A stretch of 64,000 nt of DNA from a virus (IMGVR_UViG_3300037501_000255); one strand, 5' to 3'; counted from the first letter of the stretch, positions 18,876-53,248 are shown. The notes: a model not told the origin generated them from the letters alone. Numbers and translations are program-made.

Positions 18876-20321
18876 TCACTGCAGCAGACTTTCGTGAGGC
18901 TGCATTACACGTGCAGATCGAAGCGCTTTAACCTGCTCTTCAGCCAGATCTACAAGATTGAAAATGCGATTTAACTCGGCAGCGCTCACAAGCAGAGCAT
19001 AATTTCCGCCGCTATCCATTTCCACAAATTTCGATATATTAAGGTCCATCGCAGTCTCTGCGGCAGCATCGGGGTCCTGTGCGGCTACGGCCTGCTGTAA
19101 ACGGCCGCGCAGACTGTCAACCATTGCTTTAATACCCTTGTACCAAGCATCATCGATTAATCCGCTAGCAACACCAATAGGCTGATATGCGCGATTAATA
19201 AATAACTGAGCTTGCATAGTCGCGTTTTTGTCAAGAGGCTGGCGTGATGATGTGTCCGCTTCCTCAACCGCATGCTCGGCATCCTGCATCTCCGGGGAAT
19301 CAAATTGATCTGCGTGCTGCCCATCGGATTGCTGGGATAGCCTTGTACCCTGCTCCTGAGCAAATCCCATTAACTTATTATAGCCTTCCATTACATTGGA
19401 CTCATACCACTTAAATGCTGGAAAGAATGCTCCGGCAAGTTTTACATCAATAATCTCATCACGCAATGGCTTGTAATCAGAGAAAGCCTTCTGTAAATCT
19501 TCGGTGGCAGACTGTAATTCCTGCATAGCAGCAGGAGTTTTTTGATTAGCATAAATATCAGATGCAGCTACCCAGCGATTCGTAGAAGCCTGCATGCGCG
19601 AAATAACTTCGCGAAGCTGGTATATGCGTGACTTAAATGCGGCGAAAGCGCTATCATCTTTCCACGAATCTACGTTGCCGGCCAGTTTATCTAGGTCTCG
19701 CGCAAGATTTTCCTGTTGACCTTTAAAACCATACCAGGCAGCTCCTGAAGTGCCTAGGATAGCCCCCAATCCCCACATCACCATGGGAACAGTCCATATC
19801 AAAGCAACCTTGGTGAGATTAGAATTTTTTTTTAAGGCATCTACTATAGAATTGGCCAGGGAGTCAAGTTCCTGTGCAGCAGAACTATCCCCTGTCGCAT
19901 CCAATTCCTGTGCCACAGTCAAAAGATCCTCGGCCAAAGCAGCGTACTTATGACCCACGCTACCAGACGGGTACTTATTGATCATCTCCACTAGCTTCTG
20001 ATGGAGCTCATTCCCATTCTCCACTAGCCCGCCATCCTCCATTGCATCTGCAATGTAAACCGGCTCGGGATGAGCCTCTCCAACCATATCTTTAATTTCT
20101 ACAGAGCGAAGTTTCTCACGTAGAATATCCCGCTCTTTCTTATCTGCAGCTGTAGATACAAAAGCATTTGTTTGCAGCGAAATTTGAGCAACATCTAAAT
20201 CAGGAGTCACATCTGGTAATTCTACAGTGGCGTGCCATAACGGCTCGACGGCAGGTGTCTCAGGTAGCGTACTGAGAATATTCGCATATGTACTCATAAT
20301 TTCATCAAGTTTCGTATTCAT
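18876..20321 (-). CDS. Putative internal head/ejection protein
   Basis: Contains the AHP...GGLVE module, the LLTVAQELDATGDSSAAQELD motif, and a hydrophobic segment directly after TKVA. Confidence 0.5.
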   Translation of the reverse strand: MNTKLDEIMSTYANILSTLPETPAVEPLWHATVELPDVTPDLDVAQISLQTNAFVSTAADKKERDILREKLRSVEIKDMVGEAHPEPVYIADAMEDGGLVENGNELHQKLVEMINKYPSGSVGHKYAALAEDLLTVAQELDATGDSSAAQELDSLANSIVDALKKNSNLTKVALIWTVPMVMWGLGAILGTSGAAWYGFKGQQENLARDLDKLAGNVDSWKDDSAFAAFKSRIYQLREVISRMQASTNRWVAASDIYANQKTPAAMQELQSATEDLQKAFSDYKPLRDEIIDVKLAGAFFPAFKWYESNVMEGYNKLMGFAQEQGTRLSQQSDGQHADQFDSPEMQDAEHAVEEADTSSRQPLDKNATMQAQLFINRAYQPIGVASGLIDDAWYKGIKAMVDSLRGRLQQAVAAQDPDAAAETAMDLNISKFVEMDSGGNYALLVSAAELNRIFNLVDLAEEQVKALRSARVMQPHESLLQ

Positions 20322-20323
20322 AA

Positions 20324-21736
20324 TTAATCACCTAAGATGCTTTTTAACTCAGTATTTATATGCTGACTCATACTACGTGAACGTTTATTAGAAGAGGGGG
20401 TCTTTCCGCGAGCGCGTGGAGAATTGTATTGTGTTGCAGGCGGCGAGGTATACTGAGCACTCGGTGCCGATGGCGCAGTCGCGCGTGATGCGCCGCCACC
20501 CTTCATTGCTTTAAAGCCGGCAAATATTACAGCTGCCAATGCTGCAGCTAAGCCTAGCTTGCCAACTTTACCTTTAAACATGGAGATAAGACCGGCATCA
20601 CCCCCGCGTGCGGCAGCCATAAGGCGAGCCTGTCTCAACTCCTGCTTTTGAAAGTCTGCGCGATGTTTGAGGGTTTGACGATGCTCTGCATTGCGCATAT
20701 CAAGGCGCTTCTTTAATTCTTCACGCTCTGCGCGCGACATATTCTTTTTGGCACGCTCAAGCTCGTCATATGACATCGGGGTGCCTGAGATCGCCGCCAC
20801 CATAAGGCGATGTTGCTCAGGAGTAATCTTACCCATCACCAACTCTCGTTGAAGATCGAATTTTTGCTTCTCTTTCAAATACCTATCTTCAATTTCATAC
20901 TTAGTACGAATCTGATGCTCCATCGATTCGCGATCTCTGAGGAATTTTCCATGCTCCATTTCAGCATGGTGGCGATCCAAGTCTTTCTTCCGCTCATGTG
21001 CAGATGCCGCCTCGGCTTGGTCAATCTCGCGAAGCTTCAGCTGCTGATCGAATGTAAGTCCAGCATATTCGCGCCTACGCAAATGCTTGCGCCGGTCGAA
21101 TTCGTCACGTATCTCCATCTTCGCACGCTCCTGCGCTAGAGGAACTGACTTAGAGGCCGCAGGCGACTCCGTAGGCTTATCCGCAAAAGGCTGCTTTTGC
21201 CTTTGAGTCCATGGAGGTAAAATCTCTCCACCAGGAAGCTCAATGGGCGCTGGTGCCCTAGCCTTTGGTCCGCCAGCAGGTTGGGCAGCTTCAAATTCTA
21301 CCGGTGCAGGAGCTTTTGTTTTGACATTGGTAGTAGGCTGAGCTGCCTCGAAAGTTATTTTACTTTTTGGAGTACCCGCAGGCTGTTTAGCTGGCTCTGC
21401 TGCCAATACCACCCGACCGGACCGCAGAACCTCGGCACGAGCCTCTAGTTCGGGATACATTTCATCTGCCATCTGCCCAGCTAACTCTGACGGGTTTATA
21501 TTCGACAAATCTTTACCAGCCAGCTTCTCATCGAGCATGCGCCCCACATCAGCGAGACCTATGCCCATCATGCCGGCCGCAACATTCAGAATAGCTAGGG
21601 GACCGCTAACAAGCATTAACCCTCGCCCACCCCAGCGTAGGCTGTTTTCGAAAAAGCCCTTCTCATCATCCCATATTAGGTCTTTTATAACCTCGGGAAC
21701 TTCGCCTTGAAAAAAATCAGCCTGCTTTGAGATCAT
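20324..21736 (-). CDS. Putative internal head/ejection protein with two hydrophobic segments
   Basis: N-terminal SKQA motif, two Gly-rich hydrophobic segments, a Pro/Ala linker and a charged coiled coil. Confidence 0.5.
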   Translation of the reverse strand: MISKQADFFQGEVPEVIKDLIWDDEKGFFENSLRWGGRGLMLVSGPLAILNVAAGMMGIGLADVGRMLDEKLAGKDLSNINPSELAGQMADEMYPELEARAEVLRSGRVVLAAEPAKQPAGTPKSKITFEAAQPTTNVKTKAPAPVEFEAAQPAGGPKARAPAPIELPGGEILPPWTQRQKQPFADKPTESPAASKSVPLAQERAKMEIRDEFDRRKHLRRREYAGLTFDQQLKLREIDQAEAASAHERKKDLDRHHAEMEHGKFLRDRESMEHQIRTKYEIEDRYLKEKQKFDLQRELVMGKITPEQHRLMVAAISGTPMSYDELERAKKNMSRAEREELKKRLDMRNAEHRQTLKHRADFQKQELRQARLMAAARGGDAGLISMFKGKVGKLGLAAALAAVIFAGFKAMKGGGASRATAPSAPSAQYTSPPATQYNSPRARGKTPSSNKRSRSMSQHINTELKSILGD

Positions 21737-23693: not shown

Positions 23694-23701
23694 GTATCAC
23701 C

Positions 23702-24706: not shown

Positions 24707-24714
24707 ATAAGCTC

Positions 24715-25024: not shown

Positions 25025-25711
25025 TCACAGCCAAATAAATTCTAAAAATGGATTGTGCGCAGTTGGCGGCACAATACACATCCCCACACCCGGCTGCTCG
25101 GGCATAGTTTGTTCTGTAGTTAGTTTTCCGCTAGCACTTACAAATAGCGTAGCATTTACACTATAAGCTGTCATTTCATATTGATCTGTCTGAAAAATTC
25201 CACGAGACCACCATATGGTAATCCTACCAGAGCCCACCGTTGTGTCTTCGCCGGCAATATTGGGCACATAGTATGTGTACTTAACACGCGTTCTTACTGC
25301 GTTTGGTGTCAGAGAGTCATCAGTTGCGAAATTGAGCTCAGTGCCGGCAGGTGCTTTCAGAATGCCATTAATAGGATTTAACTTTAAACCAGGGTAATCT
25401 GCTACAAAAGAACTTGCTATAATATTAGCATTGTATAGCTCTTTTGATGTATCCATAGCATTTACCCACTTATATCCATCAAATAGTGGCACGCATGGTA
25501 TTACAACTAATTCATCATTCACAGGTGCTGAGAAAGCGGTTGTCCTGATATCATCTATTATGCCAAAAGGAGCTCTTCCATCGGATACACCCAGCACATG
25601 ATCATTTCCAATAACCTTGAACTGCGCAATCATGCCAGGTTCGAACGTGGCATTCGGATCAACTGGATAAGAAACTGGTCTGGCATTTCCAGATTGTATA
25701 ACTCTAAGCAT
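25025..25711 (-). CDS. Capsid-decoration-like paralog
   Basis: MLRVIQSG...PFGIIDD...GSGRITIWWSRGIF...LFVSASGKLT aligns with 18104..18817 and with the N-terminus of 1321..3492. Confidence 0.55.
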   Translation of the reverse strand: MLRVIQSGNARPVSYPVDPNATFEPGMIAQFKVIGNDHVLGVSDGRAPFGIIDDIRTTAFSAPVNDELVVIPCVPLFDGYKWVNAMDTSKELYNANIIASSFVADYPGLKLNPINGILKAPAGTELNFATDDSLTPNAVRTRVKYTYYVPNIAGEDTTVGSGRITIWWSRGIFQTDQYEMTAYSVNATLFVSASGKLTTEQTMPEQPGVGMCIVPPTAHNPFLEFIWL

Positions 25712-26187: not shown

Positions 26188-29100
26188 TCAGAAGAACAAT
26201 TTAGCTAGATTTTCAACTGATACATCTGCCGTCTGCGGCGCAGCCGGTGTGGCACCAGAACGATCATAGTTCAGCCCAACCACGGGAGCTGCAGTTTTCA
26301 CCTGCTCCTCAGTTTTGCGAGCCTGACCAATCATATTCTTCATGGCATCAAACTGGTCGCCGGGTAGCTTCACCAGGTTAGATGCAAAGCGGTGCAAGTC
26401 CGCGCGTGATTTTGCAATCAAACCACGCTCTTGAGCTTCGAGAGCGAGATTGTATGCACGCATCAACTTCGCCTCCTGCTCCTCGCTTGCTGCTTTGACT
26501 TCGAGCCCTGCCTTGGCCTGCTTGAATTCCTGAGTTAAGCCAGTAGCGAATTCGCGTCCACCATCGACCTGACCCAGGTAATCCTTCCAGTACTTAGCAG
26601 CTACTGCATCAACAGCGCCCTTGGCAACCAACTCGTCTATCTGGGCGGCCTTCACCACGCCAGCGCGAATCATGCGATCCAAGGCTTCAGCCGCCATACG
26701 TACATTGCGCGGTTCGGACTTGGCAACATCCTCGACAGCCTCTTTAACCTCAGCAAGAGTCTCGACCTTATTGAGCTTGTCCGACACCTTAGCATCGACA
26801 GCGACATCTGGGCCTGAACCCTTACGAGCCTCTGAGTAAGTGGACTGCCACTCGCCCGCGATCTTCTTCAGGAGTGATTCCCTCCATGCTTTGCGATCCA
26901 TGAGGCCGTCTTTGGCATGCATATCTTTCTCATGCTCCCTAACTTCCTCATCAGCCTTCTTATCGGCAATCTCGGCAACTTCCTTCTCTTCAGCCTTGTT
27001 GAGCGGCCCAGGCATATCGCCGGCATCTTTTGCCGCCATAGCACCATCTTCCGCATCCCACGCCCTCAGCGCCTCAGCAAGCTCTTCTGCAGCGTCAAGA
27101 CCATCCTCGAGTTCGTCGACGACACTATCTTCCTCTGTGTCGCCATGTCCAAGGAGACTCGGGATTTCAGGCTTGGTAGCCTCCTCCCACTCATCTTCGC
27201 CCTCGGTGAAGGCCTGCGCAACAAGAGCTTCGCGACGCGCTGCGCGAGCGGCTAGGAGAGCAGCTAGAGTTTCCCCAGCCTTCTCTATACCCTTCTCTTC
27301 TTTGTCATCATCCTTCTCTTCTTTGTCATCATCCTTCTCTTCGGACTCATCCTCTTCCCTGTCCTTGCCCTTAGCCTTCTTATCAGACTTGTCCTTCTTA
27401 GACTTCTTATCGTCGTCCCTCTTCTTCTTTTTCTTAGCAGCAAACTTATCTAGAAGATCAGCTGCTGCAGTAGCGACAACAAGCGCATCAGACACCGCCT
27501 CATCAACAACGGTCACCGGAGCAGAAACTGTTGATAGCGCGCCCAGCTCATCGGCAGCCTCAGCAAGCTCGGCCTGTACCTTTAGTAACTGAGTGCGGAA
27601 AGAGGCCGCGACCGGCGCCCCTTCTGCGGCAACATCAACTTGCTTCAGATCTTCGATATTCGCAGCGTTGCGAATTTCCTCAACCGCCGACTCGATAGAA
27701 GCGAGGGCTTCGGCAATCTTGTCCTTGCCAGTATCTCGTGGTGTCGCCGGAGCTTCTGCAGCTGGGGCTTCTGGGGCGGCGGGGGCGGCTGGTGATGCTG
27801 GAAGTTCACCTCCAAGCGTTTCAGCTGCTTTCTCAAGGCCTGCCGAGCGGATGAGTTTCATCACTTCCTTGGCATATGCCTCGGTCTTGAAGAAATCATC
27901 AGCAACAAGATCTTTTCCATCCTGCGAGAGATGTGCCGTATTCTTAACCGGCTCATCTAGTCCCACTTCGTAGGCGGATGATGCACGAACAGTCAGAATT
28001 TCATTGTTACCAGAGAAGAACTTCCAGGCGCTCTGACCCGGGGTTGCGCTCTTGGTGAGTCGCGCACGGATTGAAGCCATGCGCTGGAGGCCGCGCTTGG
28101 TCTGTTCATCACCGGGGAACATGCCGTCAGCGCCACTCTCAACGCTGCCATTCATTTGCTTATCCTTCATACGCATCTTCTCGTGAGGCTCTCCCATAAG
28201 CGGATACTGGGCCTTGCCAGGAGTTGGCTCTTCCGTGCCCTGCCAGTATGCCTTCTTCTCCACGGCACCTTCCTTATCATCAGCCTTCAGGACTTCTTTG
28301 GTACCATCAGCCTTCGTGGCGACCATAACCTTTCTACCGAGGGAGTCGGTCTTTTCCTCGACTGCACCAGGCCTCTTGTCATCGGCAGCCTCTTTCGTCA
28401 GTGCCTTGAGAAGCCGAGCGCGCTTAGCTCGACGCTCTTCAAGGGAGGCGCGTTGCAGCATCTCCTTCTTCTTGGCATCTTCTGCCGGGATATCTTTAGA
28501 TGTATCCAGCTCCTTGCCGGTCATCTGCTTATCTTGAGTGTCGCGAATCTTATCAGCGTCCCCCATCTTTTCGTACGGAAGGGCCTTTGCTGGGTCTTCC
28601 GTGCCCTGGTGATACGCTTGTTTACGCGCCTCTGCGCGCTTACGTAACTCTGCAAAATTCATTGGAATCTCCTTATTCTTCAACATTGCAAATCTATTGT
28701 GCAAAGAATTGTTTTTGGCACCAGCGTCAGAACCATCAGAATAATTTGATGATGTTGCCGATGCCGTTGCTATACCACTATTAGGATCCGGAAGAGTTCG
28801 TGAAACTCCTACGTTCTTGTCTACCATAGAGGTCGGATCTTGCCCGACCTCGCTATTCAAGCTCTCACCGGCCATGTCATGGCCAGTTGCTGCCGCAGAG
28901 CCCATATCGGGCTGAGTGGTCGTACCCGTTGGTCTCACTGCGGAGCTAACATCTATCACAGGAGCTTCTGAAGTCATATACCTTTCAGCCAACAGCTCTG
29001 CAACGGCTTCTTTAACCGATGTAAGTGCAGGATCTTTCATAGACTTCAGCTTTAGTGCAAGCTCCCGTAGCTCGGGATTTTTCATAGACGAAACATGCTG

Positions 29101-30045
29101 CACTACCATAGCATATTTCGGACTTTCATGATTTAGCGTACCCAATAGATCTATGATTTCTGATACGCTAAGATTTTTTCCTGGGACTGATGCGGGCGCA
29201 ACACCCCCTTCATCGCCAGATAAGGCCGCTGCCTTTTGAATGAAGTAATTATTGAAGCTAGCTAACACAGTGCGTACTTTGGCCCGCGGGTCGGCACCTG
29301 TAACAACAAGGCTAAGTTCAATTGGTTTTAGATCCTTATTTATTTCACCATAGTTTGCTTTGGTCTTGACATGGTGACAGTACTCAGCTTCGGTGGTAGC
29401 CACATTTGAGCACTCGGTACAGATCGACCGCCCCACAGCTGTGCCCATCGACACATTGGTCGCATAGCCCGCTTCAACCTTTCGAGCTAGATCTGGATAA
29501 TTTTTTCTATCTAATGCAAATAGCGCGTGGACACGCTTGAATTTAGGATCATAGAAGGTATCTACGATAATACCACGTATTCCATCAACACTATTGCTAA
29601 TATGGTCTTTACACAGCGGCTTTCCAACCCAATCTTTGTGAGATTTAATCAAATCTTCTTCGGGGAAGATGTCGCCATTTTGATTTTTATATAGCTGAAT
29701 ACCGTCTGGGCTAACCCACTTGACTGAGTCTGAGCCACGCGAATCTTTGACTGATTCAAAATGACCCCGCACAGGTTCGCCCCTAGCATTTTTTCTAAAT
29801 TCGCCGCTACCGTCGTCGACAAGATTTGCCTCGGCGGCATGCATCTGAATCGCATGACAATAGAGGAAATCTTCCATCTTAGGAGCGATCTTTGTTCCAA
29901 CCTTAACACGTTCTTGCTCTTCGCGCAAGGAAGAAATGATCTCTTTAAAGCGGCCAACTATTTCCGCCTCCTCGCCAACAGTTTCGGGAGAAACGATATT
30001 AGAAACTTGTAATTGATCGCTGAAGGCAATCTTTTTAATAGCCAT
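26188..30045 (-). CDS. Prohead protease-scaffolding fusion protein (1285 aa)
   Basis: The N-terminal domain NQNGDIF...VGKPLCKDH...GIIVD...VSMG...SICTEC...YCHH...EIN...IELSLVVTGADP is consistent with an HK97/assemblin-fold protease carrying catalytic His/Ser. It is followed by about 1000 aa of Ala/Glu/Lys-rich coiled and low-complexity sequence. It lies between portal and MCP. Confidence 0.78.
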   Translation of the reverse strand: MAIKKIAFSDQLQVSNIVSPETVGEEAEIVGRFKEIISSLREEQERVKVGTKIAPKMEDFLYCHAIQMHAAEANLVDDGSGEFRKNARGEPVRGHFESVKDSRGSDSVKWVSPDGIQLYKNQNGDIFPEEDLIKSHKDWVGKPLCKDHISNSVDGIRGIIVDTFYDPKFKRVHALFALDRKNYPDLARKVEAGYATNVSMGTAVGRSICTECSNVATTEAEYCHHVKTKANYGEINKDLKPIELSLVVTGADPRAKVRTVLASFNNYFIQKAAALSGDEGGVAPASVPGKNLSVSEIIDLLGTLNHESPKYAMVVQHVSSMKNPELRELALKLKSMKDPALTSVKEAVAELLAERYMTSEAPVIDVSSAVRPTGTTTQPDMGSAAATGHDMAGESLNSEVGQDPTSMVDKNVGVSRTLPDPNSGIATASATSSNYSDGSDAGAKNNSLHNRFAMLKNKEIPMNFAELRKRAEARKQAYHQGTEDPAKALPYEKMGDADKIRDTQDKQMTGKELDTSKDIPAEDAKKKEMLQRASLEERRAKRARLLKALTKEAADDKRPGAVEEKTDSLGRKVMVATKADGTKEVLKADDKEGAVEKKAYWQGTEEPTPGKAQYPLMGEPHEKMRMKDKQMNGSVESGADGMFPGDEQTKRGLQRMASIRARLTKSATPGQSAWKFFSGNNEILTVRASSAYEVGLDEPVKNTAHLSQDGKDLVADDFFKTEAYAKEVMKLIRSAGLEKAAETLGGELPASPAAPAAPEAPAAEAPATPRDTGKDKIAEALASIESAVEEIRNAANIEDLKQVDVAAEGAPVAASFRTQLLKVQAELAEAADELGALSTVSAPVTVVDEAVSDALVVATAAADLLDKFAAKKKKKRDDDKKSKKDKSDKKAKGKDREEDESEEKDDDKEEKDDDKEEKGIEKAGETLAALLAARAARREALVAQAFTEGEDEWEEATKPEIPSLLGHGDTEEDSVVDELEDGLDAAEELAEALRAWDAEDGAMAAKDAGDMPGPLNKAEEKEVAEIADKKADEEVREHEKDMHAKDGLMDRKAWRESLLKKIAGEWQSTYSEARKGSGPDVAVDAKVSDKLNKVETLAEVKEAVEDVAKSEPRNVRMAAEALDRMIRAGVVKAAQIDELVAKGAVDAVAAKYWKDYLGQVDGGREFATGLTQEFKQAKAGLEVKAASEEQEAKLMRAYNLALEAQERGLIAKSRADLHRFASNLVKLPGDQFDAMKNMIGQARKTEEQVKTAAPVVGLNYDRSGATPAAPQTADVSVENLAKLFF
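27291..27341 (-). repeat. 21-nt tandem duplication in the scaffold low-complexity region
   Basis: CTTTGTCATCATCCTTCTCTT occurs at 27300-27320 and 27321-27341 plus a partial copy, encoding EEKDDDK x2. Confidence 0.85.
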
Positions 30046-37125: not shown

Positions 37126-38427
37126 CTATGCTCCTACTACAATACGATCTTTTAAAAACGGTGTCGGATCTATAGTTTTCGAGTCATACTTCATAATAAA
37201 ATGCAGATGCGGTCCGGTCACTTGTCCGGTTTGACCAGCAAGGCCGATAACCTGCCCCGGTTGAACTATGTCTCCAACAGATACAAGAATCTTGCTTAAA
37301 TGCAAATACATAGTCACCAGCCTATCATCCGGACCATGTGCGACTTTAACCATGTTCCCGCTCGCCTGATTGCCGGCACCGGCAAATATGACACGGCCTT
37401 TAGCAAAGGCCAAGATTTTAGTACCTTCTGCTGCCTCAAGATCCACTCCCTTGTGAAAGTGACCTGGTTTCTTGGTTATTGGATCCACACGTACCCCATA
37501 CGGAGATGTTATGCGTTGCCGCCCCGCTAGCGTTTCACCGGGCTGAAGAGGTCTCGGTCGATCTACTTCACTGGGACCGGGCTTATGAGAGTGCGGCACG
37601 GTCGGGGCCGAACCGCGAAAAATCTTGGCTAATTCTGAGTTTACATACTCAGCCAAATTAAACTCGGCCTTTTTGTACTTTTTAACAAGTGCTGGGGCGA
37701 GATACTGATTCATCAATGTTTTAGACTCATGTCCAACAGACTCTGATACGTTTTCGAGGGCCTTGTCAAAGTCCTTTGTTCGCTTAAGCTCATCACGCAT
37801 CAATCGATTTGCATGAAATCCACGCAGATCTTTAGCTGTAATATCAAAGTCAGCAAGGTATCTATTGACAACCTTGGCGCGAATGCGCTTGCCATCCTCA
37901 TACTCGAAGACAAAATCCTCGTTCGACTTACCCTTTAGAAGGTCTTTGAGTACCTTTGCAACAGCAGCGTCAGTGAATGAGAATTTTTGATCTACTTGCT
38001 TTTTACCTAGAAAACTAAATTTCACGGTATTGCCGCTTATTTTAACATGCTTCTTCTTAAGCGTAGTTGCACCAAATGTACCGAACTCATCCACGGAGTC
38101 GTCATTGCCAACGCGCATGGCGGTAAGGTCCAAAAGCGCTACTACGGCAGCAAGCGCGCGTACCTTCTCGTCATCAGACTTTAAATCTGAACGATATTTC
38201 TTTTGTAATTTTGGCAGACTCTTTTTTAGAGCATTTATATGCTCAACCTTCTTCTTCCATCTCTTCTTGACATGAGCATCATCGTATACCCGAACTTCGC
38301 CGGATTCGGTCTTAATTTTCTTGACGTAATTCTTCTCGTATTTGCGCTTGGCTAAGACATATAGCGATGAGGCGCCATATGCCTCAAGCGTCATTGCTCT
38401 ATTCTGCACTCTCCGGCTCAGTATCAT
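37126..38427 (-). CDS. DNA topoisomerase IB fused to a C-terminal M23 metallopeptidase
   Basis: The Topo IB pentad is intact: R (AMRVGN), K (FLGKK), R (KDLRGFHAN), H and Y (VGHESKTLMNQY). M23 motifs are HKGVD (HxxxD), YLHL and GPHLHF (HxH). Confidence 0.88.
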   Translation of the reverse strand: MILSRRVQNRAMTLEAYGASSLYVLAKRKYEKNYVKKIKTESGEVRVYDDAHVKKRWKKKVEHINALKKSLPKLQKKYRSDLKSDDEKVRALAAVVALLDLTAMRVGNDDSVDEFGTFGATTLKKKHVKISGNTVKFSFLGKKQVDQKFSFTDAAVAKVLKDLLKGKSNEDFVFEYEDGKRIRAKVVNRYLADFDITAKDLRGFHANRLMRDELKRTKDFDKALENVSESVGHESKTLMNQYLAPALVKKYKKAEFNLAEYVNSELAKIFRGSAPTVPHSHKPGPSEVDRPRPLQPGETLAGRQRITSPYGVRVDPITKKPGHFHKGVDLEAAEGTKILAFAKGRVIFAGAGNQASGNMVKVAHGPDDRLVTMYLHLSKILVSVGDIVQPGQVIGLAGQTGQVTGPHLHFIMKYDSKTIDPTPFLKDRIVVGA

Positions 38428-38725: not shown

Positions 38726-40630
38726 TCACGGTGCTGGGCCGGGAGGCGTTGGCGCTCCCGGCATACCACCAGGCGGCTCCGCTGGTGTTGGTGGAGGCGG
38801 CATACCCATGCCTAAATCGCCGCCAGGCATTAGAGGTGGTAGTCCGCCCAATCCAAGGTCACCACCCGGCATCGGAGGTGGGACGCCCGGCAATCCACCC
38901 GGCATACCGCCTGCAAGACCACCAGCCGCACCCCCGGCTGGTTCAGGAATTGGCTCAGTTGGATTAAGACTCTTTAGCTGAGACAGGCTCATCTTAGATA
39001 GATTATCTTGTTCCTTGGCTATAATAGCGGCTTCAATCATCTCCTGCCTAATATTGGCAATTTCATTCTTGCGGCTCAAACCAAGGCTACGATCTAGCGT
39101 TCTAACAGAAACACGATTCTTTTCCACTAGTGTAGAGAGATGTGCGATATAATTATCGAGATCATATAGTGTCATATGATTCCATTCTACTTTGGGTACA
39201 ATCAAGCGCTTCTCTTGACCAACGATATCATAAAATCCTTGTACCTCAGAAATCGGAGCAAAAACCTTCCTCTCTAGCCAATTAGCTATCATAGTCCTAA
39301 ATCCGTTGTAGCGCTGCCTCATGACATCCAGGGCAACGGATGCTGTAGCATACGACGCGCCCTCCTGTGTAAGCAGGGATTTTGGAACCATAAGGCCTGT
39401 AAAGAGGTTATCCATAATCTGATTGATATCTGCGGCAGTATCCAGTATGTGCCCAGAAGCCCCGACTCGGTCAATCGTCACAGCACCGTGTGTGATGATT
39501 TTGAAATCTCTGTCAAATTGCGCCTGCTCCATAATAGCGCGCCAATTATCCAATTCTTCCTGCCGAGGATAGAATCCCTCAGCGCCATCCGTACCGATCT
39601 TAACAAGAGTGATCGGATTAACCATGCTATCTGCCTGAATATACTTACATTCCCTATACTTATCATATAACATTAGGTCTTTCCAGACACTAACTATAAT
39701 AGAGGTGCCACGAACATCATATGGTGAATTTAACATCTTCAAATGACTGATGTTGAAGTTATCCAGCGGAATCATTTCATTTCTAATCACATGATTGATG
39801 ATTTTCGGATCTATTTGATCACGTATGCGCGCATACTCGGGATCCGCATCTGATACAATCTTTTTCAGTTCCGGGTCGGGTCTTAATAAAATAGTAGTGT
39901 TCTTGGGGGAGGTCGGTGACGCTCTGACTGTGATAAAGTCTGGATTGTGCAAATATAACTGATCCCACGAGCCAGTAGACTCATCAAAGGAAGCGTATAC
40001 AAATGCTTCGCCCAACTTCCAGAACTCCAGCGCCGCCTGCTGAACAACGGTCTCGAGGTCAATTTTATCACACATATCCAAAAAGAATCTCTCTACGCGC
40101 TTATCATCGCACCGTATAGATAGCTTGGATATTGGGTATGTAGCATGCAGATTAATTGCATTTCTCACCAGAGGATTTGTCTCGTAATAAGCTCTATTCC
40201 ACGCATTCATTGTGATACGATCGCGGGGAAGCTGCATGTTTTGAGTGAGGAATAGGGGAGAGAATGGCTCTGGACCCACATGCGTGGAGTTTGACACTCC
40301 GCCTATGCGTCCTCCAGAATTCATATTTGTCGATGCAGTCTTATGAAGACCGGAGGCGAGCGCCAAGTTTGGTCTCGGATGCTCTTCTGCGCGAGCATTT
40401 ACCTCCTGTAGATACTCTCGGCGCTCAAGGCTAAGATGCCCAAGGGCGGCGGCTGACTGAGCCTGCCTGTGTAATGTTGTCCGTGAAACATTTTCTACAG
40501 GCAAACCACGCTGCTGCTGGGCTTGACGATAATACATTTGATCTATAACGCTGGTGCGAGGCTCGGCGTCCCCCCAACGTTTAGCCTGCTCTTCAGCTCT
40601 CTTTATAACACTTGGTTCATGCTTTTTCAT
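38726..40630 (-). CDS. Portal protein
   Basis: YYETNPLVRNAINLH...GEAFVY...LHNPD...HLK...PYDVRGTSII...TGLMVPKSLL is a portal-type sequence directly downstream of terL. It has a Pro/Gly-rich C-tail. Confidence 0.82.
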   Translation of the reverse strand: MKKHEPSVIKRAEEQAKRWGDAEPRTSVIDQMYYRQAQQQRGLPVENVSRTTLHRQAQSAAALGHLSLERREYLQEVNARAEEHPRPNLALASGLHKTASTNMNSGGRIGGVSNSTHVGPEPFSPLFLTQNMQLPRDRITMNAWNRAYYETNPLVRNAINLHATYPISKLSIRCDDKRVERFFLDMCDKIDLETVVQQAALEFWKLGEAFVYASFDESTGSWDQLYLHNPDFITVRASPTSPKNTTILLRPDPELKKIVSDADPEYARIRDQIDPKIINHVIRNEMIPLDNFNISHLKMLNSPYDVRGTSIIVSVWKDLMLYDKYRECKYIQADSMVNPITLVKIGTDGAEGFYPRQEELDNWRAIMEQAQFDRDFKIITHGAVTIDRVGASGHILDTAADINQIMDNLFTGLMVPKSLLTQEGASYATASVALDVMRQRYNGFRTMIANWLERKVFAPISEVQGFYDIVGQEKRLIVPKVEWNHMTLYDLDNYIAHLSTLVEKNRVSVRTLDRSLGLSRKNEIANIRQEMIEAAIIAKEQDNLSKMSLSQLKSLNPTEPIPEPAGGAAGGLAGGMPGGLPGVPPPMPGGDLGLGGLPPLMPGGDLGMGMPPPPTPAEPPGGMPGAPTPPGPAP

Positions 40631-40643: not shown

Positions 40644-43556
40644 TTATATTCTCGGCAAATATGCCAACATCGGCACTGGCAAACCGGGACCTTTAGCCTT
40701 GACCTCGCTGCCCTTGAAGCCGCTCGTCGCCAAGAACTTGTATGCAATCAGAGCATATATTGTTGCCATGAGCCCGTCGTTTTGGATAGCACCCTTGACA
40801 TATCTGTTATATACATTATCATTCTTCACGATCTTCTTAACTTCCATCGAGGTAAAATGCTGCATCAACCACTCGATCCTATCGTATGACTCGCCATGTA
40901 CAGGGAAGCGGATTTTGCCATTTCTAACCATAGAGAATATCTCTTCTATCATGGCATCCTTATTTAAAACAACTCGTAATTCTTTTGGCTTATATGATAT
41001 AGTGCTATTCAAGGTGCCGCTGTTTATACATCCTAGAAATCGCTCACCAAAGCCCATCGAGCCCTGCATGTGTTGCACTATGTCTTGGCCGTATCCGATA
41101 TCTGCAGCAGCAACCTGAACCTTGAATAGTCGATACATTTCAGATATGATATTGACCTTGTATTCAAAATCATTGCGCTTTAATCTATAAGCATTTTCTA
41201 TTGTAAATATTCCATTTTTGTCCACACTAACAATTACCACGGCTGTATATGACTGCCCGGCATCAACTCTTCCTCCGCCAGAGTCCTCTTCATCCTCATC
41301 GCCAGCACCGACTAGGTCCTTCCCTCCCCAGTCTATGCCCATCACGACGGTTTTGTCTCCGCGATCAATAATAGTTTTTGCTAATCCACGAGTTCCGTCG
41401 CAGCAGTTTGCGCGAATATCATCTAGCGATATCGTCATGCCGCCACCACTATAGAACTCTCCCAATGTTTCATTTTTCCAGGCCTTCTCACTGCGTTCGC
41501 GATTTACAGACGGATCTAGGTCCAAAATGCTCTCTTTAGTAAACCAAGGATGTAGTAAAACACTTACGTGATAGCCCACATACTGCGTCTCGCCAAGCTT
41601 AGTAGGCATCCAGCGCCCACCCTCGATCGCATCAGCCTTTTTCTGCAACGTACCGCATTCGGGGCAGCGAACATCATGCCCGGATACCCAAATCTTCTTC
41701 CAGGAGTCGCTACCCATAGTGTATAGGAAAAAATAATGGGAGCAGCCAGTACACCGTAGCTGATAAAATCTCTGATCAGATTTTTGCCATAGGTTATAGA
41801 AGTGGGATCCTGTTCCTTTCGGCGTTCCAAAATATACCTGTATACCTTTGGTGGGCCTGCCATACTGTGCAGATGTTAAGATGGGACCCGCCGTCTCGAT
41901 AGCATCCTTTGACATATCCTGGCAATTGTGTGCAATCGGGCCACCGACATTTTTGCTGGTCCGGCTTGGGCAAAGTATGAAGTTATGGTTATCAGCTACG
42001 CCAATATCGTAAACGGCGTCTTCGCCAGCATCATACTGTAATTTGTCAACACATGTGAAAGCGTGCGAAGGACTACTGTTTGACCATGCATACCTATCTG
42101 CCGCCCAGCTGCGATAAAAAGATAGCTTATATTCCATATTATGATGCACATATGGCTGTATTATCTCACAAAGTTTTGAATAATTGGATGAATCCAGATA
42201 TAATGAAAAGTATGAGTAGTACTTTCTATATTCCGCGTTAATTCCAAACCTGGACAGCATCGCAACTAATCGAACCTGCGTATCCTCATCAAATGAGCAC
42301 GTTGAGATGCACGCACATCCCTTATTTACGAAGCCATCATCCATAAACCAGACAGCAAGAGCGCGAGCGTCAGCAGCATCCAACATCCACTGCGGACACG
42401 TACTCTTTGTGCGAGGAATGTATCCTGGTAATACAAAGCACTTTGATGAAAAACGTACTGCTGGCTTCTGAACATAACCATTTTTCTCAATATATGCAAC
42501 GCTACTATTAAACATCGACGCTTTCCATTCTGCGTATTCGCGCTGCTGTATGCCATGTGTTACAGAAAGGCGAAAGCGCCCACTCTTGGGACTCGAGATA
42601 TGGCCATCTCCGAGGAATGAACCAATTGCTATCTGCAGCTGGTCAGAATTCAAAGCGCGCACGCAGAGGTCTGTCCCAGGCGAAGTCATCAGGGCATCAC
42701 CGATACACAGGGACGATGCATCTACCCAGCCACGCTGAGTTAAAAATCTATGATTCGGCGTGCATTTGATCTCTCGATTTCCACAAGTAATTTGCATTAA
42801 TTTTCGGATTCCGCGATTCCAGGCACCATTAATTTGCTTGAACTCAAAAGTACAAGTTGACTCATTATAGCTCTTTACAAGCGGAAGCGGCTCACCGTTC
42901 GCCCACATATCATACAGCTTGCCTATTTTCTCTTTGCCAGAATCAGTCTCTATGTTCTGATCGTAGGGGAAACACTCGTCAAAGAAAATAGCGTCCTGCG
43001 AGAGACCGCGGATTCGGTCGCCATCCGCTCCGGTACCCTCTATACGAAGCTTATTGTATCCCTTAAATGTCTTTTCAGCTATAGCATCCTCCGTTCCTGC
43101 GACTTTAATAGCATTTGCGTCATTTTTTAACATTCTGCTATTTATATAGCCATTCTGCGAGCCTGCTACCATAGGGCCCAATTTATCTTTGGCGTACTTC
43201 GACATTAATCCTAGTGTTGGAAATACATGCAGAACCCTCATCGGAGGTTTGTCTGGTCCAGTGCCAAAGAGCCCTGAGGCTGTGAAGTACAATGATAATA
43301 CAGCCGCAAGAACAGTGGCGCCTATTTGGCGCCCCTTCAAAATCACCATCGGTTTAGCGGTCTTATTAGCCGCCTGAGCTGCCACTTCGCGATACAGGTC
43401 GGCCATAAACTTCCAACCAGTGCCACTCATGCGGAATGGTTTTCCGTCTACAGTCAGATGATTTTCTGCAAATGAAACAGGATCAAGAAGAGATATCTCA
43501 TTCTTGATCTGATTGAAAAGTTTTAGCGTTACTTCTTTGTTGGCTACTACCGTCAT
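40644..43556 (-). CDS. terL: Large terminase subunit with LAGLIDADG intein (620 aa after splicing)
   Basis: KGRQIGAT (Walker A), AIFFDE (Walker B), FGTP coupling motif and nuclease motif VMGIDWG. Confidence 0.92.
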   Translation of the reverse strand: MTVVANKEVTLKLFNQIKNEISLLDPVSFAENHLTVDGKPFRMSGTGWKFMADLYREVAAQAANKTAKPMVILKGRQIGATVLAAVLSLYFTASGLFGTGPDKPPMRVLHVFPTLGLMSKYAKDKLGPMVAGSQNGYINSRMLKNDANAIKVAGTEDAIAEKTFKGYNKLRIEGTGADGDRIRGLSQDAIFFDECFPYDQNIETDSGKEKIGKLYDMWANGEPLPLVKSYNESTCTFEFKQINGAWNRGIRKLMQITCGNREIKCTPNHRFLTQRGWVDASSLCIGDALMTSPGTDLCVRALNSDQLQIAIGSFLGDGHISSPKSGRFRLSVTHGIQQREYAEWKASMFNSSVAYIEKNGYVQKPAVRFSSKCFVLPGYIPRTKSTCPQWMLDAADARALAVWFMDDGFVNKGCACISTCSFDEDTQVRLVAMLSRFGINAEYRKYYSYFSLYLDSSNYSKLCEIIQPYVHHNMEYKLSFYRSWAADRYAWSNSSPSHAFTCVDKLQYDAGEDAVYDIGVADNHNFILCPSRTSKNVGGPIAHNCQDMSKDAIETAGPILTSAQYGRPTKGIQVYFGTPKGTGSHFYNLWQKSDQRFYQLRCTGCSHYFFLYTMGSDSWKKIWVSGHDVRCPECGTLQKKADAIEGGRWMPTKLGETQYVGYHVSVLLHPWFTKESILDLDPSVNRERSEKAWKNETLGEFYSGGGMTISLDDIRANCCDGTRGLAKTIIDRGDKTVVMGIDWGGKDLVGAGDEDEEDSGGGRVDAGQSYTAVVIVSVDKNGIFTIENAYRLKRNDFEYKVNIISEMYRLFKVQVAAADIGYGQDIVQHMQGSMGFGERFLGCINSGTLNSTISYKPKELRVVLNKDAMIEEIFSMVRNGKIRFPVHGESYDRIEWLMQHFTSMEVKKIVKNDNVYNRYVKGAIQNDGLMATIYALIAYKFLATSGFKGSEVKAKGPGLPVPMLAYLPRI
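41925..42974 (-). mobile_element. Intein (350 aa) inserted after the terminase Walker B Glu
   Basis: Begins CFPYDQNI and has block B CTPNH, LAGLIDADG motifs IAIGSFLGDG and LAVWFMDDG, block F VYDIGVADNHNF, and ends AHN followed by +1 Cys (DE|CQDM). Confidence 0.95.
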
Positions 43557-44206: not shown

Positions 44207-45151
44207 CTATGCATGATAAGTAGTTCCGAAATCGACCCCATCCGAGGATGTGGGATCCTGGTCTTCCCCTAGCCGCCCAAGATCTTTAAACATTGGGAAT
44301 CCCTTCTGTAATAGCAGTTCCTGAATGCTCAACTCTTCGCGCGGCGTAAAGCGATACTTATCCTTAAGACTGGCATATACCTTTTCAATGTCGCGCCCGG
44401 CAGATACATGTGAATTTAACAGTAATCTAGTTATAGCATGCAGGAATGGATCTTCGAATAAGAAAATCTTTGCGCTCCCGGCCTCTTTGACTAGCTGGTC
44501 GCTCGTCTGCTCGCCCAAGGCGAAAATCTGTACCTGCTCATCTGTCGGTTCAGCCAGCGTAACAGGGAGGAGTTCCTCTCCTTCACCGTCATCTACAGCA
44601 ATGTAGTATTTAATATCCAAGCCATCATTGATCCTAGCGACGACCTGATTGCCGACCTTGACCGACGACTTCTTCTTCATCTTTTTCTTAGATGATAACT
44701 TATCATACGCATCTTCTAGTTTGGATACGAATTCCATAATTGTATCGCGTATCTTCTCTGCTTCCTCCTCGTCGATGACATTATCATCATCGCTCTGGAT
44801 GGCGCGTGAAATTTCACGATCAAGGCGCTTTAGGTAGGCAATTGCACGCTCGCAGCCAACAGTTGTCTGCCCAGTGTGGCGAGGGATGGTATCGAGGCGC
44901 TTGCGAACGTAGTCGAGAAATTTGCTGTGATCGCCGTCGTTAACCCAGTCCCGCTCGCGCGAATTCTCAACAACCTCACTTGCCTCCTCCTCGTCTGGGA
45001 TTACGACTACCACATCAGCGCCAGGAACGATATCTTCCAGCACTTCAACGGCCTCATCCAAAAGACCATCAGGTTCAAAAATTTCAAAAGTGTCATTATC
45101 TAATGCTGGCATATTATTGTCCTCCGCGCTTCTTTTCCAAAAGTGTTTCAA
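44207..45151 (-). CDS. Hypothetical acidic protein
   Basis: 314-aa ORF containing KRSA and VKEA motifs. Confidence 0.65.
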   Translation of the reverse strand: MKHFWKRSAEDNNMPALDNDTFEIFEPDGLLDEAVEVLEDIVPGADVVVVIPDEEEASEVVENSRERDWVNDGDHSKFLDYVRKRLDTIPRHTGQTTVGCERAIAYLKRLDREISRAIQSDDDNVIDEEEAEKIRDTIMEFVSKLEDAYDKLSSKKKMKKKSSVKVGNQVVARINDGLDIKYYIAVDDGEGEELLPVTLAEPTDEQVQIFALGEQTSDQLVKEAGSAKIFLFEDPFLHAITRLLLNSHVSAGRDIEKVYASLKDKYRFTPREELSIQELLLQKGFPMFKDLGRLGEDQDPTSSDGVDFGTTYHA

Positions 45152-49154: not shown

Positions 49155-49163
49155 ATTTGCTCC

Positions 49164-49206: not shown

Positions 49207-49224
49207 ATAAACATCGAAGATGTC

Positions 49225-50496: not shown

Positions 50497-50504
50497 CAGC
50501 CACC

Positions 50505-52049: not shown

Positions 52050-52050
52050 A

Positions 52051-52551
52051 TTATTCCTCGCTATTTGTCTTTAGCTCTGAGACAACCTCTGTCATATGCA
52101 GCGGTAGCCCCTTAAGCACTTGCCGTACGAACTCAGGTTCGGCGGTCTTTGCTTGTAAAAATGCGGCAAACTGCTCAGCCTCATCTGGTACAAACTTAAA
52201 CTCTTCAGATGCAAAGCGCTTGAGCGGAAAACCCTTAAAACTGAGGGTTATATTCTTGCGATCTCGATCGCAAATAGCGGTCCAGTCGGACGAGGCCGTT
52301 GTTTTGATTTCTGCGGGTTGCTCGTTTTCGGAGGTTTTCACAGGCATATTTTCATACATCGCATAAAGATATTTGTTGCCATCTTCTCCGTCGCGGAGCT
52401 CCCAAAGCTGCTCGGAACCATCCAGAGGCTTGTATACGTCCCAAGCTACTTTACGGAAGCCGCTCCGCACTTCTTCCCAAGCAAGGCGCTGAGTGTCACG
52501 TTTCGGCTCAACAACATCAGCAAGGCGAGCCCAATCAAAATCAGCAGACAT
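52051..52551 (-). CDS. Hypothetical protein
   Basis: GGAGG RBS; co-oriented 166-aa ORF. Confidence 0.65.
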   Translation of the reverse strand: MSADFDWARLADVVEPKRDTQRLAWEEVRSGFRKVAWDVYKPLDGSEQLWELRDGEDGNKYLYAMYENMPVKTSENEQPAEIKTTASSDWTAICDRDRKNITLSFKGFPLKRFASEEFKFVPDEAEQFAAFLQAKTAEPEFVRQVLKGLPLHMTEVVSELKTNSEE

Positions 52552-52627
52552 CCGTCCTCCAAATAGAATAAGATCAAATTATGTAGTTGGTTATTGATAG
52601 ATGGGCCGCTGTCATAAATATATACAG

Positions 52628-53248
52628 TCAGCCCTTTCCGTGCTTCAAATATTTGTAAATCTCGTCCATGTCATCGGCAACCTTGGAAATCTTATCTTCC
52701 AACCAGTCATCCATCTTATGACCATCACGAAAATGTTCTGAGACCGTTTTTGCTATAAAAATCGCCTGTTCGAGTATGGCCCTTGTATTTTGATGAGACA
52801 TGTAATCAATATCCTCATGGTCCTCGGTCTTCATCTCACCACAGGCGCAGGCTGCAATTTTTACGAGTCGCGCGGTCCTGCGGGCTGCCAACGATTTGAA
52901 ATCTAAGTTGAACATAAAATCCTCCAGTCCTGTTCGTAGGTCTACAGGCTCCTCATCTGCGCTGTGCGTTTTAGTTTTAGCTGGACCTTCGGATCGCTTC
53001 CGCCTCAAGTCTACAAGGAGTTCGTGTAGGGCACGCCGGTCCCTCTTTAAATCAACATAGCGTCTAAGCAAATCTCCGGCTGCACGAAGAAACTCTTTCT
53101 CTGGAAGCTTAATTCTATGGCGAGTTCCAGGCTCAACCTCAGACGGAATCGTTACGTGGCGCAACTTCTCGATTTCAGAATTTAAAGCCATCATCTCGCT
53201 ATCTGTCTTAGATAACTCCAATTCGACATCTTCTAATGTATTTTTCAT
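52628..53248 (-). CDS. Hypothetical coiled-coil protein
   Basis: AGGAG RBS; VKIA motif before a small C-terminal helical domain. Confidence 0.65.
   Translation of the reverse strand: MKNTLEDVELELSKTDSEMMALNSEIEKLRHVTIPSEVEPGTRHRIKLPEKEFLRAAGDLLRRYVDLKRDRRALHELLVDLRRKRSEGPAKTKTHSADEEPVDLRTGLEDFMFNLDFKSLAARRTARLVKIAACACGEMKTEDHEDIDYMSHQNTRAILEQAIFIAKTVSEHFRDGHKMDDWLEDKISKVADDMDEIYKYLKHGKG

Follow-up and report, generated by a model that had tools for sequence, protein, structure and literature searches.

The window, a stretch of 64,000 nucleotides, carries head-assembly genes of an uncultured giant phage on its minus strand, the direction in which all of the features described here are read, and these genes include, in order, those for the terminase, the portal, a protease-scaffold protein and the major capsid protein (MCP); the order is identical in a complete relative, G005. 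The portal protein (38726..40630) matches PHROG 16240 (E 6e-45) and is 32% identical to phage G gp14. The MCP was located by tblastn with phage G gp27, which matches three separate pieces of the window, its first exon being a 100-aa open reading frame at 17558..17860, and it has the HK97 fold by homology to gp27. Alignment shows that MCP residues 1-43 form an N-terminal extension that is absent from the phage G MCP, and this extension is present in all 80 of 80 relatives.

Between the portal and MCP genes lies a gene for a 1285-aa protease-scaffold fusion (26188..30045; PHROG 18299, head maturation protease, E 1e-10), which has over 596 homologues, each about 1250 aa long. Its conservation profile resolves a protease domain (about residues 1-275), a variable linker, two modules of ~75 aa, and a helical, acidic scaffold part. 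The two modules are an internal duplication (E 3e-7) carried by no other protein of the contig, and column frequencies show conserved starts at K475-Q-A-Y478 (28612..28623) and K597-K-A-Y600 (28246..28257), with a family consensus of [RK][RK]-A-Y-[WF]-Q-G-x-x-E-P...Y...DK[ILV]R...DKQM. The fusion has no Pfam family match even at E<=10 (S78 included) and no match among PDB sequences, and no similarity of the protease sequence to S21 is detectable. An AF2 model of residues 1-282 (29200..30045; pLDDT 84.5) predicts a prohead-protease/assemblin fold: the only significant Foldseek matches are to T4 gp21 (5JBL, E 3e-5, prob 1.0), and VIA-align gives Z 12.3 for 5jbl (rmsd 2.6, 148 aa), 5.3 for the VZV protease and 4.2 for the HCMV protease. 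As modelled, the domain would belong to MEROPS clan SH (S21/S77/S78/S80), and it is 32% identical to phage G gp19. His148 (29602..29604, in CKDH) and Ser199 (29449..29451, in VSMG, with a Cys/His cluster after it) are the candidate catalytic residues; their codons were verified, and neither varies among 33 diverse homologues, nor do C209, C212 and C223.

A sequence-only reading of the region had proposed that a Lys-x-Ala motif pervades the head proteins encoded at 18876..53248 and constitutes a protease code. All 19 of the strings it cited are found in the sequence (QKKAD and VKIAA each occur twice), although the MCP example, AKYA before Ser, sits outside this span, in MCP exon 1. K-x-A is somewhat over-represented in the span (101 observed against 84.3-84.4 expected, O/E 1.20, z 1.8-2.1), but it ranks only 26th among 341 X-x-Y pairs, and its pervasiveness is mostly a matter of composition. 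When those with Leu, Ile, Phe or Met two residues before the Lys (P5, numbering the Ala as P1) are set aside, 62 copies are observed against 68.1 expected, at or below expectation; most of the 101 copies, and about eight of the 19 examples, are therefore probably chance occurrences. Eleven of the 19 have L/I/F/M at P5. Orthologues keep K-x-A sites, taken as a class, no more often than control pairs (rank 20-25 of about 96), and Lys retention is 0.41 within K-x-A and 0.44 for other Lys residues (p=0.6). Three of the cited examples stand out clearly as conserved islands between variable flanks (MCP K26/A28, portal K97/A99, and K222/A224 of a 314-aa protein), two are the K-x-A-Y starts of the duplicated scaffold modules, and the remainder are unconserved or have no orthologues for testing.

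What is enriched in the head-assembly proteins of this phage and many relatives is not bare K-x-A but the five-residue motif Leu/Ile/Phe/Met-x-Lys-x-Ala. The 30 proteins of 18876..53248 contain 38 copies of [LIFM]-x-K-x-A against 15.7 expected (O/E 2.43, Poisson p 1e-6), compared with 41 against 32.8 in the remainder of the contig. Two complete relatives (372 and 452 kb) each have a single peak over the head module, with an O/E of 3.2 there and 1.1-1.2 elsewhere; whole-genome maps give 55 copies in the head module of G001 (17.4 expected) and 52 in that of G005 (16.4 expected), with 111 (91.5 expected) and 124 (109 expected) elsewhere in these genomes, respectively. The motif was refined after the three conserved sites had been seen, a circularity that these genomes and a blind count mitigate, although the relatives are evolutionary kin. 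That count covered 82,291 gapped tripeptide patterns in 291 family representatives taken from the head modules of 80 relatives, and ranked LxKxA first (229 against 72.4), IxKxA 8th, FxKxA 12th, and KxAS 16th. Among 614 proteins with no BLAST match to the contig there are 821 copies against 321 expected, using a wider P5 set (I/L/M/F/V).

In position scans, enrichment is 3.2-fold with Leu at P5, 2.8-fold with Phe, 2.5-fold with Ile and 2.1-fold with Met, compared with 1.0 for Val and 0.90 for non-hydrophobic residues; at P3, Lys gives 2.8, and Arg and His 1.4, and at P1, Ala gives 2.8. P4, P2 and P1' exclude Pro; P4 is also depleted of Ala and favours Ser, Thr and Val, and Gln, Ser and Asn are preferred at P1'. 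Other spacings of Leu, Lys and Ala, and the reversed motif, all fall at 1.1-1.3, against 2.8 for the exact spacing, and codon use within the motif matches each genome's background. Numbers within this one phage are small: the terminase has four copies against 1.0 expected, the P1' preference for S/Q/N is not visible (4 vs 2), and a distant 10-kb bin of the contig (100-110 kb) holds ten motifs against 3.5 expected. Terminase orthologues avoid the motif (11 against 23.3 expected). Across the clade, the motif constitutes a head-module-specific signal under selection at the protein level, and it behaves as a short linear motif, with head-module enrichment, positional conservation in variable context, and avoidance in folded cores and non-capsid proteins.

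The motif is nearly invariant at its N-terminal sites in the MCP and portal. The MCP site L24-A-K26-Y-A28, followed by Ser29 (17777..17791), has conservation of 0.96 for Lys, 1.00 for Ala, and 1.00 for a hydrophobic P5 among 80 relatives, in flanks of 0.35, and is the best candidate for a maturation cut, one that would remove a 28-residue propeptide. Of 57 distinct intact MCPs, 56 carry the N-terminal motif, and only one copy in the set lies beyond residue 75. In about half of the MCPs a conserved helix near residue 55 contains a second copy, and cutting there is unlikely. The portal site L95-H-K97-T-A99, before Ser100 (40334..40348), lies some 25 residues ahead of the conserved core, in a variable linker rich in Ser and Gly, and is the strongest i/i+2 conserved island among ten protein families (Lys 1.00 and Ala 0.98 in 40 orthologues, flanks 0.37; Lys 0.90 and Ala 0.87 in n=30). 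Portal cores are depleted of the motif (9 against 18.3 expected), and the pre-core regions of 40 proteins hold 44 copies. A third island, L220-V-K222-E-A224 before Gly (44480..44494), is in the 314-aa protein encoded at 44207-45151 (Lys 0.92, Ala 0.83, P5 0.92, flanks 0.33, n=12).

The protease-scaffold protein has nine copies against 2.7 expected (P=0.002), and its orthologues have 588 against 194 (3-fold), with a median of seven; phage G gp19 has five against 0.55, including two in the C-terminal tail. Two scaffold sites recur at corresponding positions, with a motif within +-5 residues in 74% and 78% of 120 family members, respectively: L663-T-K-S-A667 before Thr (28045..28059), at the end of module 2, for which exact retention of Lys and Ala is 0.72, and L737-E-K-A-A741 before Glu (27823..27837). 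The counterpart of the former at the end of module 1, L549-T-K-E-A553 before Ala (28387..28401), has poor positional retention (0.18/0.24), and L1059-K-K-I-A1063 before Gly (26857..26871), in the C-terminal scaffold part, is weakly retained. I269-Q-K-A-A273 before Ala (29227..29241), at the end of the protease domain and ahead of the variable linker, is a possible release site; it is about 0.3 retained, G005 has a comparable LKKIA at residue 263, and the region is a low-confidence helix in the AF2 model. At the protease N-terminus (MAIKKIA), I3-K-K5-I-A7 (30025..30039) fits the motif and has an invariant K5, but residues 3-8 are a strand in the model, which aligns to gp21 from residue 1, such that this copy probably forms a structural beta-strand within the protease fold and is not a cut site.

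Placement at N-termini, also suggested by the sequence-only reading, holds weakly in this phage (6/37 against 3/120 proteins, p 0.006) and more clearly in the two relatives, where 10/71 head-module proteins (14%) and 24/777 other proteins have the motif within their first 12 residues (p 2e-4). The copies so placed in the span begin at I2, I3, L3, L8 and L5 of the proteins at 20324, 26188, 45114, 45647 and 49225, respectively.

The most likely role of the motif is to mark where the head-maturation protease cuts. We consider it probable, if well short of secure, that an assemblin-fold serine prohead protease reads and cuts an extended [LIFM]-x-K-x-A peptide across the head proteins. The N-terminal domain of the fusion would be this protease, with the fold of T4 gp21, HK97 gp4 and herpesvirus assemblin, and would recognise L/I/F/M at P5, favouring Ser, Thr or Val at P4, Lys at P3, any residue at P2, and Ala at P1, with S/Q/N preferred next. 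The cut is placed after the Ala because assemblin cuts there, and its position is thus drawn by analogy. In the assembled prohead the protease would remove the first 28 residues of the MCP, after L-A-K-Y-A28, and about 99 N-terminal residues of the portal, after L-H-K-T-A99; it would also make several cuts in its own scaffold part, the most conserved being after A667 and A741, and other proteins whose genes adjoin the head genes would lose short N-terminal peptides or internal linkers to it. Placement on an MCP extension, a portal linker, a scaffold and N-termini is typical of protease substrates. A partial search of the literature found no experimental virion N-termini or cleavage data for the clade, phage G included.

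A different explanation, which we regard as unlikely, is that the peptide is bound and not cut, acting as a docking or capsid-targeting epitope through which a prohead component (the scaffold, the inner MCP surface or the portal) recruits proteins. N-terminal placement suits a targeting peptide as well, and of the 472 representative sites, 76 (against 24 expected) run on into x-x-PHI-[DEN], resembling a longer amphipathic, helical-looking tag; four such copies (PHI-x-K-[VL]-A-x-x-PHI-D) are in the window, in the proteins at 18876 (residue 210), 23702 (149), 49225 (270) and 52628 (187). However, the O/E stays at 2.45 after tag-like sites are removed, and the scaffold itself has the most copies, an oddity if the tag's role is docking onto the scaffold. 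A cut site should be avoided in portal cores and in the MCP beyond residue 75, as is observed, whereas a tag need not be; the portal copy is in a Ser/Gly-rich variable linker and not in a helix, and the preferences at P4 and P2, for beta-branched residues and against Ala and Pro, point to an extended strand. In T4 a single peptide serves for both targeting and cutting, and docking is therefore partly compatible with proteolysis; the subset of copies within the longer helical tag suggests binding rather than cutting, and docking may thus be part of the function.

The near-irreplaceable Lys at conserved sites (1.00 in the portal and 0.96 in the MCP, with Arg at 1.4-fold overall) would also suit a sequon for methylation, acylation or an isopeptide cross-link made by an enzyme other than the protease, and HK97-type capsids do use Lys in cross-links. 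This is very improbable, as no candidate modifying enzyme is seen among the head genes, the sites are in N-terminal extensions, linkers and normally discarded scaffold and are nearly absent from the shell-forming MCP body beyond residue 75, and a strict small P1 together with a P1' preference is typical of protease subsites. The least probable account, to which we attach very little weight, is that the motif has no function and reflects the composition and helical periodicity of scaffold-like proteins rich in Lys, Ala and Leu. Bare K-x-A, at 1.2 times expectation and no better conserved than controls, fits this description, and local composition lifts all L/K/A spacings to 1.1-1.3; PHI-x-D-x-L is as enriched as the motif in the window, showing that structural bias can yield similar z-values locally. 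Such bias does not predict the excess at the exact spacing over its neighbours and reverse, the first rank among all patterns in the blind count, the single head-module peak in two complete genomes, near-invariant portal Lys and Ala in a variable, non-helical context, or the rejection of Val at P5 despite its equal hydrophobicity. For the refined motif, lack of function is largely refuted; for most bare K-x-A it holds.

The proposal of a Lys-x-Ala protease code is partly supported by the comparative evidence, as a code based on Lys and Ala, with K-x-A as originally put being too loose. No report of such a five-residue cleavage rule for phages was found in the literature. Tentatively, and with more doubt than conviction, we suggest that a large, mostly uncultured jumbo-phage clade with cultured phage G at its edge uses an undescribed specificity, [L/I/F/M]-x-K-x-A before [S/Q/N], cut after Ala as by assemblin but gated by the P3 Lys, with the peptide doubling as a short N-terminal address label that sorts dozens of otherwise unrelated proteins into the head. 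If so, the virion proteome and cargo of hundreds of metagenomic giant phages would be readable from sequence alone.

Assemblins combine protease and scaffold in one chain that cleaves itself after Ala, and herpesvirus assemblin (MEROPS S21) has R and M sites such as, in PrV, YLQA before T and VQA before S (PMC4498786). The system proposed here resembles them in predicted fold class (VZV Z 5.3, HCMV Z 4.2), in its N-terminal protease and C-terminal scaffold, and in having Ala at the proposed P1 followed by a small polar residue, but differs in needing Lys two residues before the Ala and L/I/F/M four before, with no Val at P5. The assemblin code [VLI]-x-A-S is itself not enriched, at 0.76-1.30 in head modules and 1.00-1.05 elsewhere. 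T4 gp21 (L/I-x-E) and phiKZ gp175/SPN3US gp245 ([S/A/G]-x-E, A-x-E) cut after Glu (PMC5694885, PMC10052503), and in SPN3US and phiKZ the propeptides carry the motif several times and autocleavage occurs at the C-terminus (PMC5694885). T4 gp21 is the closest solved fold to the modelled domain (Z 12.3, Foldseek prob 1.0), and one short motif on many head proteins, on N-terminal propeptides, in several copies and on the protease's own tail, is common to T4, phiKZ, SPN3US and the present phage, although the motif here is basic and small rather than acidic, and five residues long. The suggestion that the code differs from the Glu type is supported, and Glu motifs have no head-module excess: [LI]-x-E is at 1.13-1.21 in head modules and 1.12-1.14 elsewhere, and [SAG]-x-E and A-x-E are at 0.92-1.07 everywhere. 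Otherwise unrelated head-associated proteins that begin with a short peptide ending in the protease motif recall the T4 capsid targeting sequence, to which the sequence here is unrelated, and head packaging of the motif-bearing proteins is putative. As with the HK97 gp4 type (S78, with the scaffold separate or fused), the protease gene lies between portal and MCP and the MCP has the HK97 fold, and we take the layout of DH followed by S-x-G to resemble that of S78. HK97 cuts its own capsid protein after Lys103; here, in contrast, the Lys is conserved and the Ala two residues later is equally so.

The window belongs to a 142-kb contig from an uncultured phage, whose minus strand holds nearly all of the genes. 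A nucleotide search against phages gave no match, and among named relatives Bacillus phage G is the closest, with a portal that is 32% identical and a protease, gp19, that matches the protease domain. Landmarks of the head module, all on the minus strand, are the large terminase (40644-43556), the portal (38726-40630), a topoisomerase IB/M23 peptidase fusion (37126-38427), a 1612-aa protein (32044-36882), a 1285-aa protease-scaffold fusion (26188-30045) and, directly downstream of the latter, a 228-aa protein (25025-25711). The terminase carries a LAGLIDADG intein within its ATPase part (Intein_splicing, residues 210-528; LAGLIDADG_2, residues 308-462). In the fusion encoded between the portal and 1612-aa protein genes, a eukaryotic-type topoisomerase IB catalytic core (residues 57-234) is joined to an M23 peptidase (residues 324-421). 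The pairing is unusual and hints at an enzyme that is packaged or ejected.

The sequence-only reading had proposed that a pervasive K-x-A motif in the head-module proteins of 18876-53248 is the cleavage code of a prohead protease. All 19 of the strings it cited are present, with one of them misplaced, as AKYA|S lies outside this span in exon 1 of the major capsid protein (MCP) gene (17558-17860). The bare motif comes close to showing no enrichment, with 101 occurrences in the 30 proteins of the span where per-protein composition predicts 84 (O/E 1.20, z about 2), a rank of 26 among 341 X-x-Y pairs, and 170 against 157 expected in the remaining contig. Nor is K-x-A as a class retained better than A-x-K, K-A, K-xx-A, E-x-A and similar pairs in tblastn pile-ups of 80 related loci, and lysines within K-x-A are retained at 0.41 versus 0.44 for other lysines. 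Because enrichment is only 1.2-fold and retention equals that of the controls, we dropped bare K-x-A as the unit in favor of the subset with a hydrophobic residue at P5 (counting the lysine as P3 and the alanine as P1).

The pattern hydrophobic-x-K-x-A was chosen post hoc, from a P5 hydrophobic residue common to the portal, the MCP and several protease-scaffold sites, and we therefore tested it in ways independent of that choice. With I, L, M, F or V at P5, it ranks second of 278 hydrophobic-x-a-x-b patterns at 14000-53248 (49 versus 22.2 expected) and 80th of 378 in the rest of the contig (48 versus 42.1), and its reversed and shifted versions are flat in the same contig. Related loci were gathered with an alignment probe, a single-protein probe having reached only two. 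Among 1018 proteins from 80 related head loci the pattern ranks first of 400 (1804 versus 722), and it is again first in the 614 of these without BLAST similarity to the contig (821 versus 321). A blind count of all 82,291 three-residue patterns at 13 spacings, run on 291 sequence clusters with one representative apiece (110,458 aa), places L-x-K-x-A first (229 versus 72.4), I-x-K-x-A eighth, F-x-K-x-A twelfth and K-x-A-S sixteenth, with Val and all non-hydrophobic residues at P5 at or below expectation. The representatives come from greedy clustering with a coverage rule; single-linkage clustering was abandoned, as it merged 525 proteins into one component and the signal was masked by Pro/Gln repeats.

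Scanning each position gave observed/expected ratios at P5 of 3.2 for L, 2.8 for F, 2.5 for I, 2.1 for M and 1.0 for V, and since Val is not enriched (0.98) it was removed from the set, leaving [LIFM]-x-K-x-A. At P3 the ratio is 2.8 for K and only 1.4 for R and H, and at P1 it is 2.8 for A, followed by a preference for Q, S and N at P1'. Pro is excluded at P4, P2 and P1', and at P4 Ala is depleted while S, T and V are favored. Other spacings and the reverse order all give 1.1-1.3, and K-x-A lacking L, I, F or M at P5 gives 0.90. The refined motif occurs 38 times in the 18876-53248 span versus 15.7 expected (p 1e-6) and 41 times in the remaining contig versus 32.8. Two complete relatives each have one motif peak, exactly over the terminase-portal-protease-MCP region, with 55 copies in the head module versus 17.4 expected and 111 elsewhere versus 91.5 in G001 (371,675 bp), and 52 versus 16.4 and 124 versus 109 in G005 (451,956 bp). 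A DNA-level motif as the cause is ruled out by codon diversity: the motif codons match the background of each genome even though the two genomes favor opposite Lys codons, and selection is therefore at the protein level. Related loci are evolutionary kin, so that z-scores overstate independence; the cluster representatives, the proteins lacking detectable homology to the contig and the rest-of-genome contrast do not rest on counts of homologous sites. Taken as a selected signal, the motif is very probably real.

Two further excesses were seen in the contig. One 10-kb bin at about 100000-110000 (in window coordinates, beyond its end), far from the head module, has 10 copies of [LIFM]-x-K-x-A versus 3.5 expected, which could reflect more virion proteins or chance. 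At 14000-53248, hydrophobic-x-D-x-L is equally over-represented (47 versus 18.9), and is not so in the remaining contig; part of this excess belongs to a tag of the form K-[VL]-A-x-x-hydrophobic-D.

A search of ten head-protein families for conserved i/i+2 pairs amid variable flanks gave, as the top island, K97-x-A99 of the portal (K 100%, A 98%, flanks 0.37, in 40 distinct orthologues). It lies as G-[LIMF]-x-K-x-A-[S/A/Q] in a Ser/Gly-rich stretch of variable sequence, some 25 residues upstream of the conserved core (YSPLWL...LPRDR); the 40 portals hold 44 pre-core copies, and their cores are depleted (9 versus 18.3). The MCP has a 43-residue N-terminal extension, absent from the phage G MCP and present in all 80 relatives, in which [IL]-x-K-[YF]-A-[SA] hardly varies; this N-terminal copy is found in 56 of 57 distinct MCPs. 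A second copy, near residue 55 within the conserved N-arm helix, is present in about half of the MCPs and is probably structural because the K varies and P1' is Leu or Ile. Beyond residue 75 these 57 MCPs contain a single copy, although composition predicts 12.9 past residue 45. Terminase orthologues are likewise depleted (11 versus 23.3); numbers in the phage itself are small, its terminase having four copies. Protease-scaffold orthologues are 3-fold enriched with a median of seven copies, and positions equivalent to the P1 residues A667 (L-T-K-S-A) and A741 (L-E-K-A-A) of the 1285-aa protein are common to 74-78% of 120 members. In G001 and G005, 59-71% of head-module proteins have at least one copy versus about 21% elsewhere, and 14% have one within the first 12 residues versus 3% elsewhere (p 2e-4). 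The 228-aa protein has neither a family match nor a motif excess; it occurs in 69 of the 80 related loci, more than any other small protein of the head module, and is a candidate decoration or accessory shell protein. In phage G the 9-44 kb region has 20 copies versus 8.6 expected, gp19 has 5 versus 0.55 with two of these in its C-terminal tail, the portal has M-A-K-Q-A20 ahead of a Gly/Ser/Asn linker, and several small proteins have N-terminal copies.

Residues 1-282 of the protease-scaffold protein have a confidently predicted fold (pLDDT 84.5). Using Foldseek, the only significant matches to this model are three chains of T4 gp21, and a second, independent structure search returned gp21 (Z 12.3), varicella-zoster protease (Z 5.3) and HCMV protease (Z 4.2). 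The domain matches PHROG 18299 (E 1e-10); no Pfam model matches it, and searching PDB sequences yielded nothing above noise. Across 33 diverse homologues the candidate catalytic residues H148 and S199 do not vary, and neither does a Cys cluster that follows the serine. This Cys/His cluster, C209-x2-C212...C223-H-H (residues 209-224; 29374-29421, minus strand), is inserted directly after the candidate catalytic-serine strand, with C209, C212 and C223 invariant across the family, and is a possible zinc ribbon; we know of no such ribbon in T4 gp21 or HK97 gp4. MAIKKIA at the N-terminus was considered as a propeptide, and in the model is more likely a structural strand. The scaffold part contains two copies of a module of about 75 aa (residues 475-600; 28246-28623, minus strand), conserved in 119 homologues, with the consensus [RK][RK]-A-Y-[WF]-Q-G-x-x-E-P...Y...DK[ILV]R...DKQM...L-T-K-x-A, each copy ending in an L-T-K-x-A copy of the motif. 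The module start shares K/R-x-A and usually lacks the P5 hydrophobic residue; as a shared tag the module was rejected, because within the contig only the protease-scaffold protein has it. One possibility is that the scaffold uses the module as a repeated binding unit.

The MCP gene, by homology to the phage G MCP gp27, is in three coding pieces within 14817-17860 (minus strand), at about 17860-17573 (gp27 alignment about 17719-17573), 16539-16321 and 15251-14847; the approximately 23 gp27 residues 126-148, between the second and third pieces, were not located. LAGLIDADG homing-endonuclease ORFs (16622-17482 and 15385-16200) lie between the pieces, and GIY-YIG (13626-14684) and HNH (12475-13680) ORFs directly downstream, all on the minus strand, so that four mobile endonuclease genes share a short stretch with the MCP gene. 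An Rfam group I intron match at 16586-16786 is sub-threshold (27.5 bits, E 5e-4).

The most economical reading, which we consider moderately well supported, takes [LIFM]-x-K-x-A as the signal that the prohead protease would both recognize and cut. Depletion from portal cores, the MCP body beyond residue 75 and the terminase fits the expectation for a cut site, and the absence of Pro together with favored beta-branched residues fits a strand in the protease groove. Placing the scissile bond after Ala is suggested only by analogy, because herpesvirus assemblins, which have the same fold as the protease of the 1285-aa protein and likewise fuse protease to scaffold, cut after Ala, as for PrV assemblin at YLQA|T and VQA|S (PMC4498786); it is conceivable that the bond is instead the one after Lys. 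A further complication is that, of 472 representative sites, 76 (24 expected) extend into a longer tag, x-x-hydrophobic-[D/E/N], including LDKLAGNVD, IAKLAADVD, MVKVADKLD and ISKVADDMD in the window. For this subset the function may be docking in place of cleavage, or the two together. A helical tag is not the whole explanation, as O/E remains 2.45 when the tag-like sites are removed.

If cleavage at the motif is correct, it would account for both the conserved MCP N-terminal extension and the conserved portal N-terminal island, and sequence alone would predict the head and cargo proteins of uncultured giant phages, as well as their mature start positions. With more than 596 protease-scaffold homologues and hundreds of metagenomic contigs of 200-480 kb carrying the code, in a separate and very large clade, it would also mean that specificity within the assemblin-fold family has shifted far, in part toward an Ala at P1 as in herpesviruses. 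Phage G, a cultured phage in which the motif behaves alike, makes a direct test of the code feasible; the literature searched on phage G reports no cleavage data.

Neither known type of code fits these phages. The Glu codes of T4 and the phiKZ group ([LI]-x-E, [SAG]-x-E and A-x-E) and the assemblin code [VLI]-x-A-S show no difference between the head module and the rest in any of the three genomes, and in the literature searched the large-phage prohead-protease codes are only of the Glu type (T4 and the phiKZ group). A prohead-protease cleavage code as such is already known, and what would be new is the predicted specificity. In SPN3US, phiKZ and T4, N-terminal propeptides, multiple motif copies in regions to be cleared and sites in the tail of the protease itself are documented (PMC5694885, PMC10052503), and the placement of the motif in this jumbo-phage clade matches that of these substrates.
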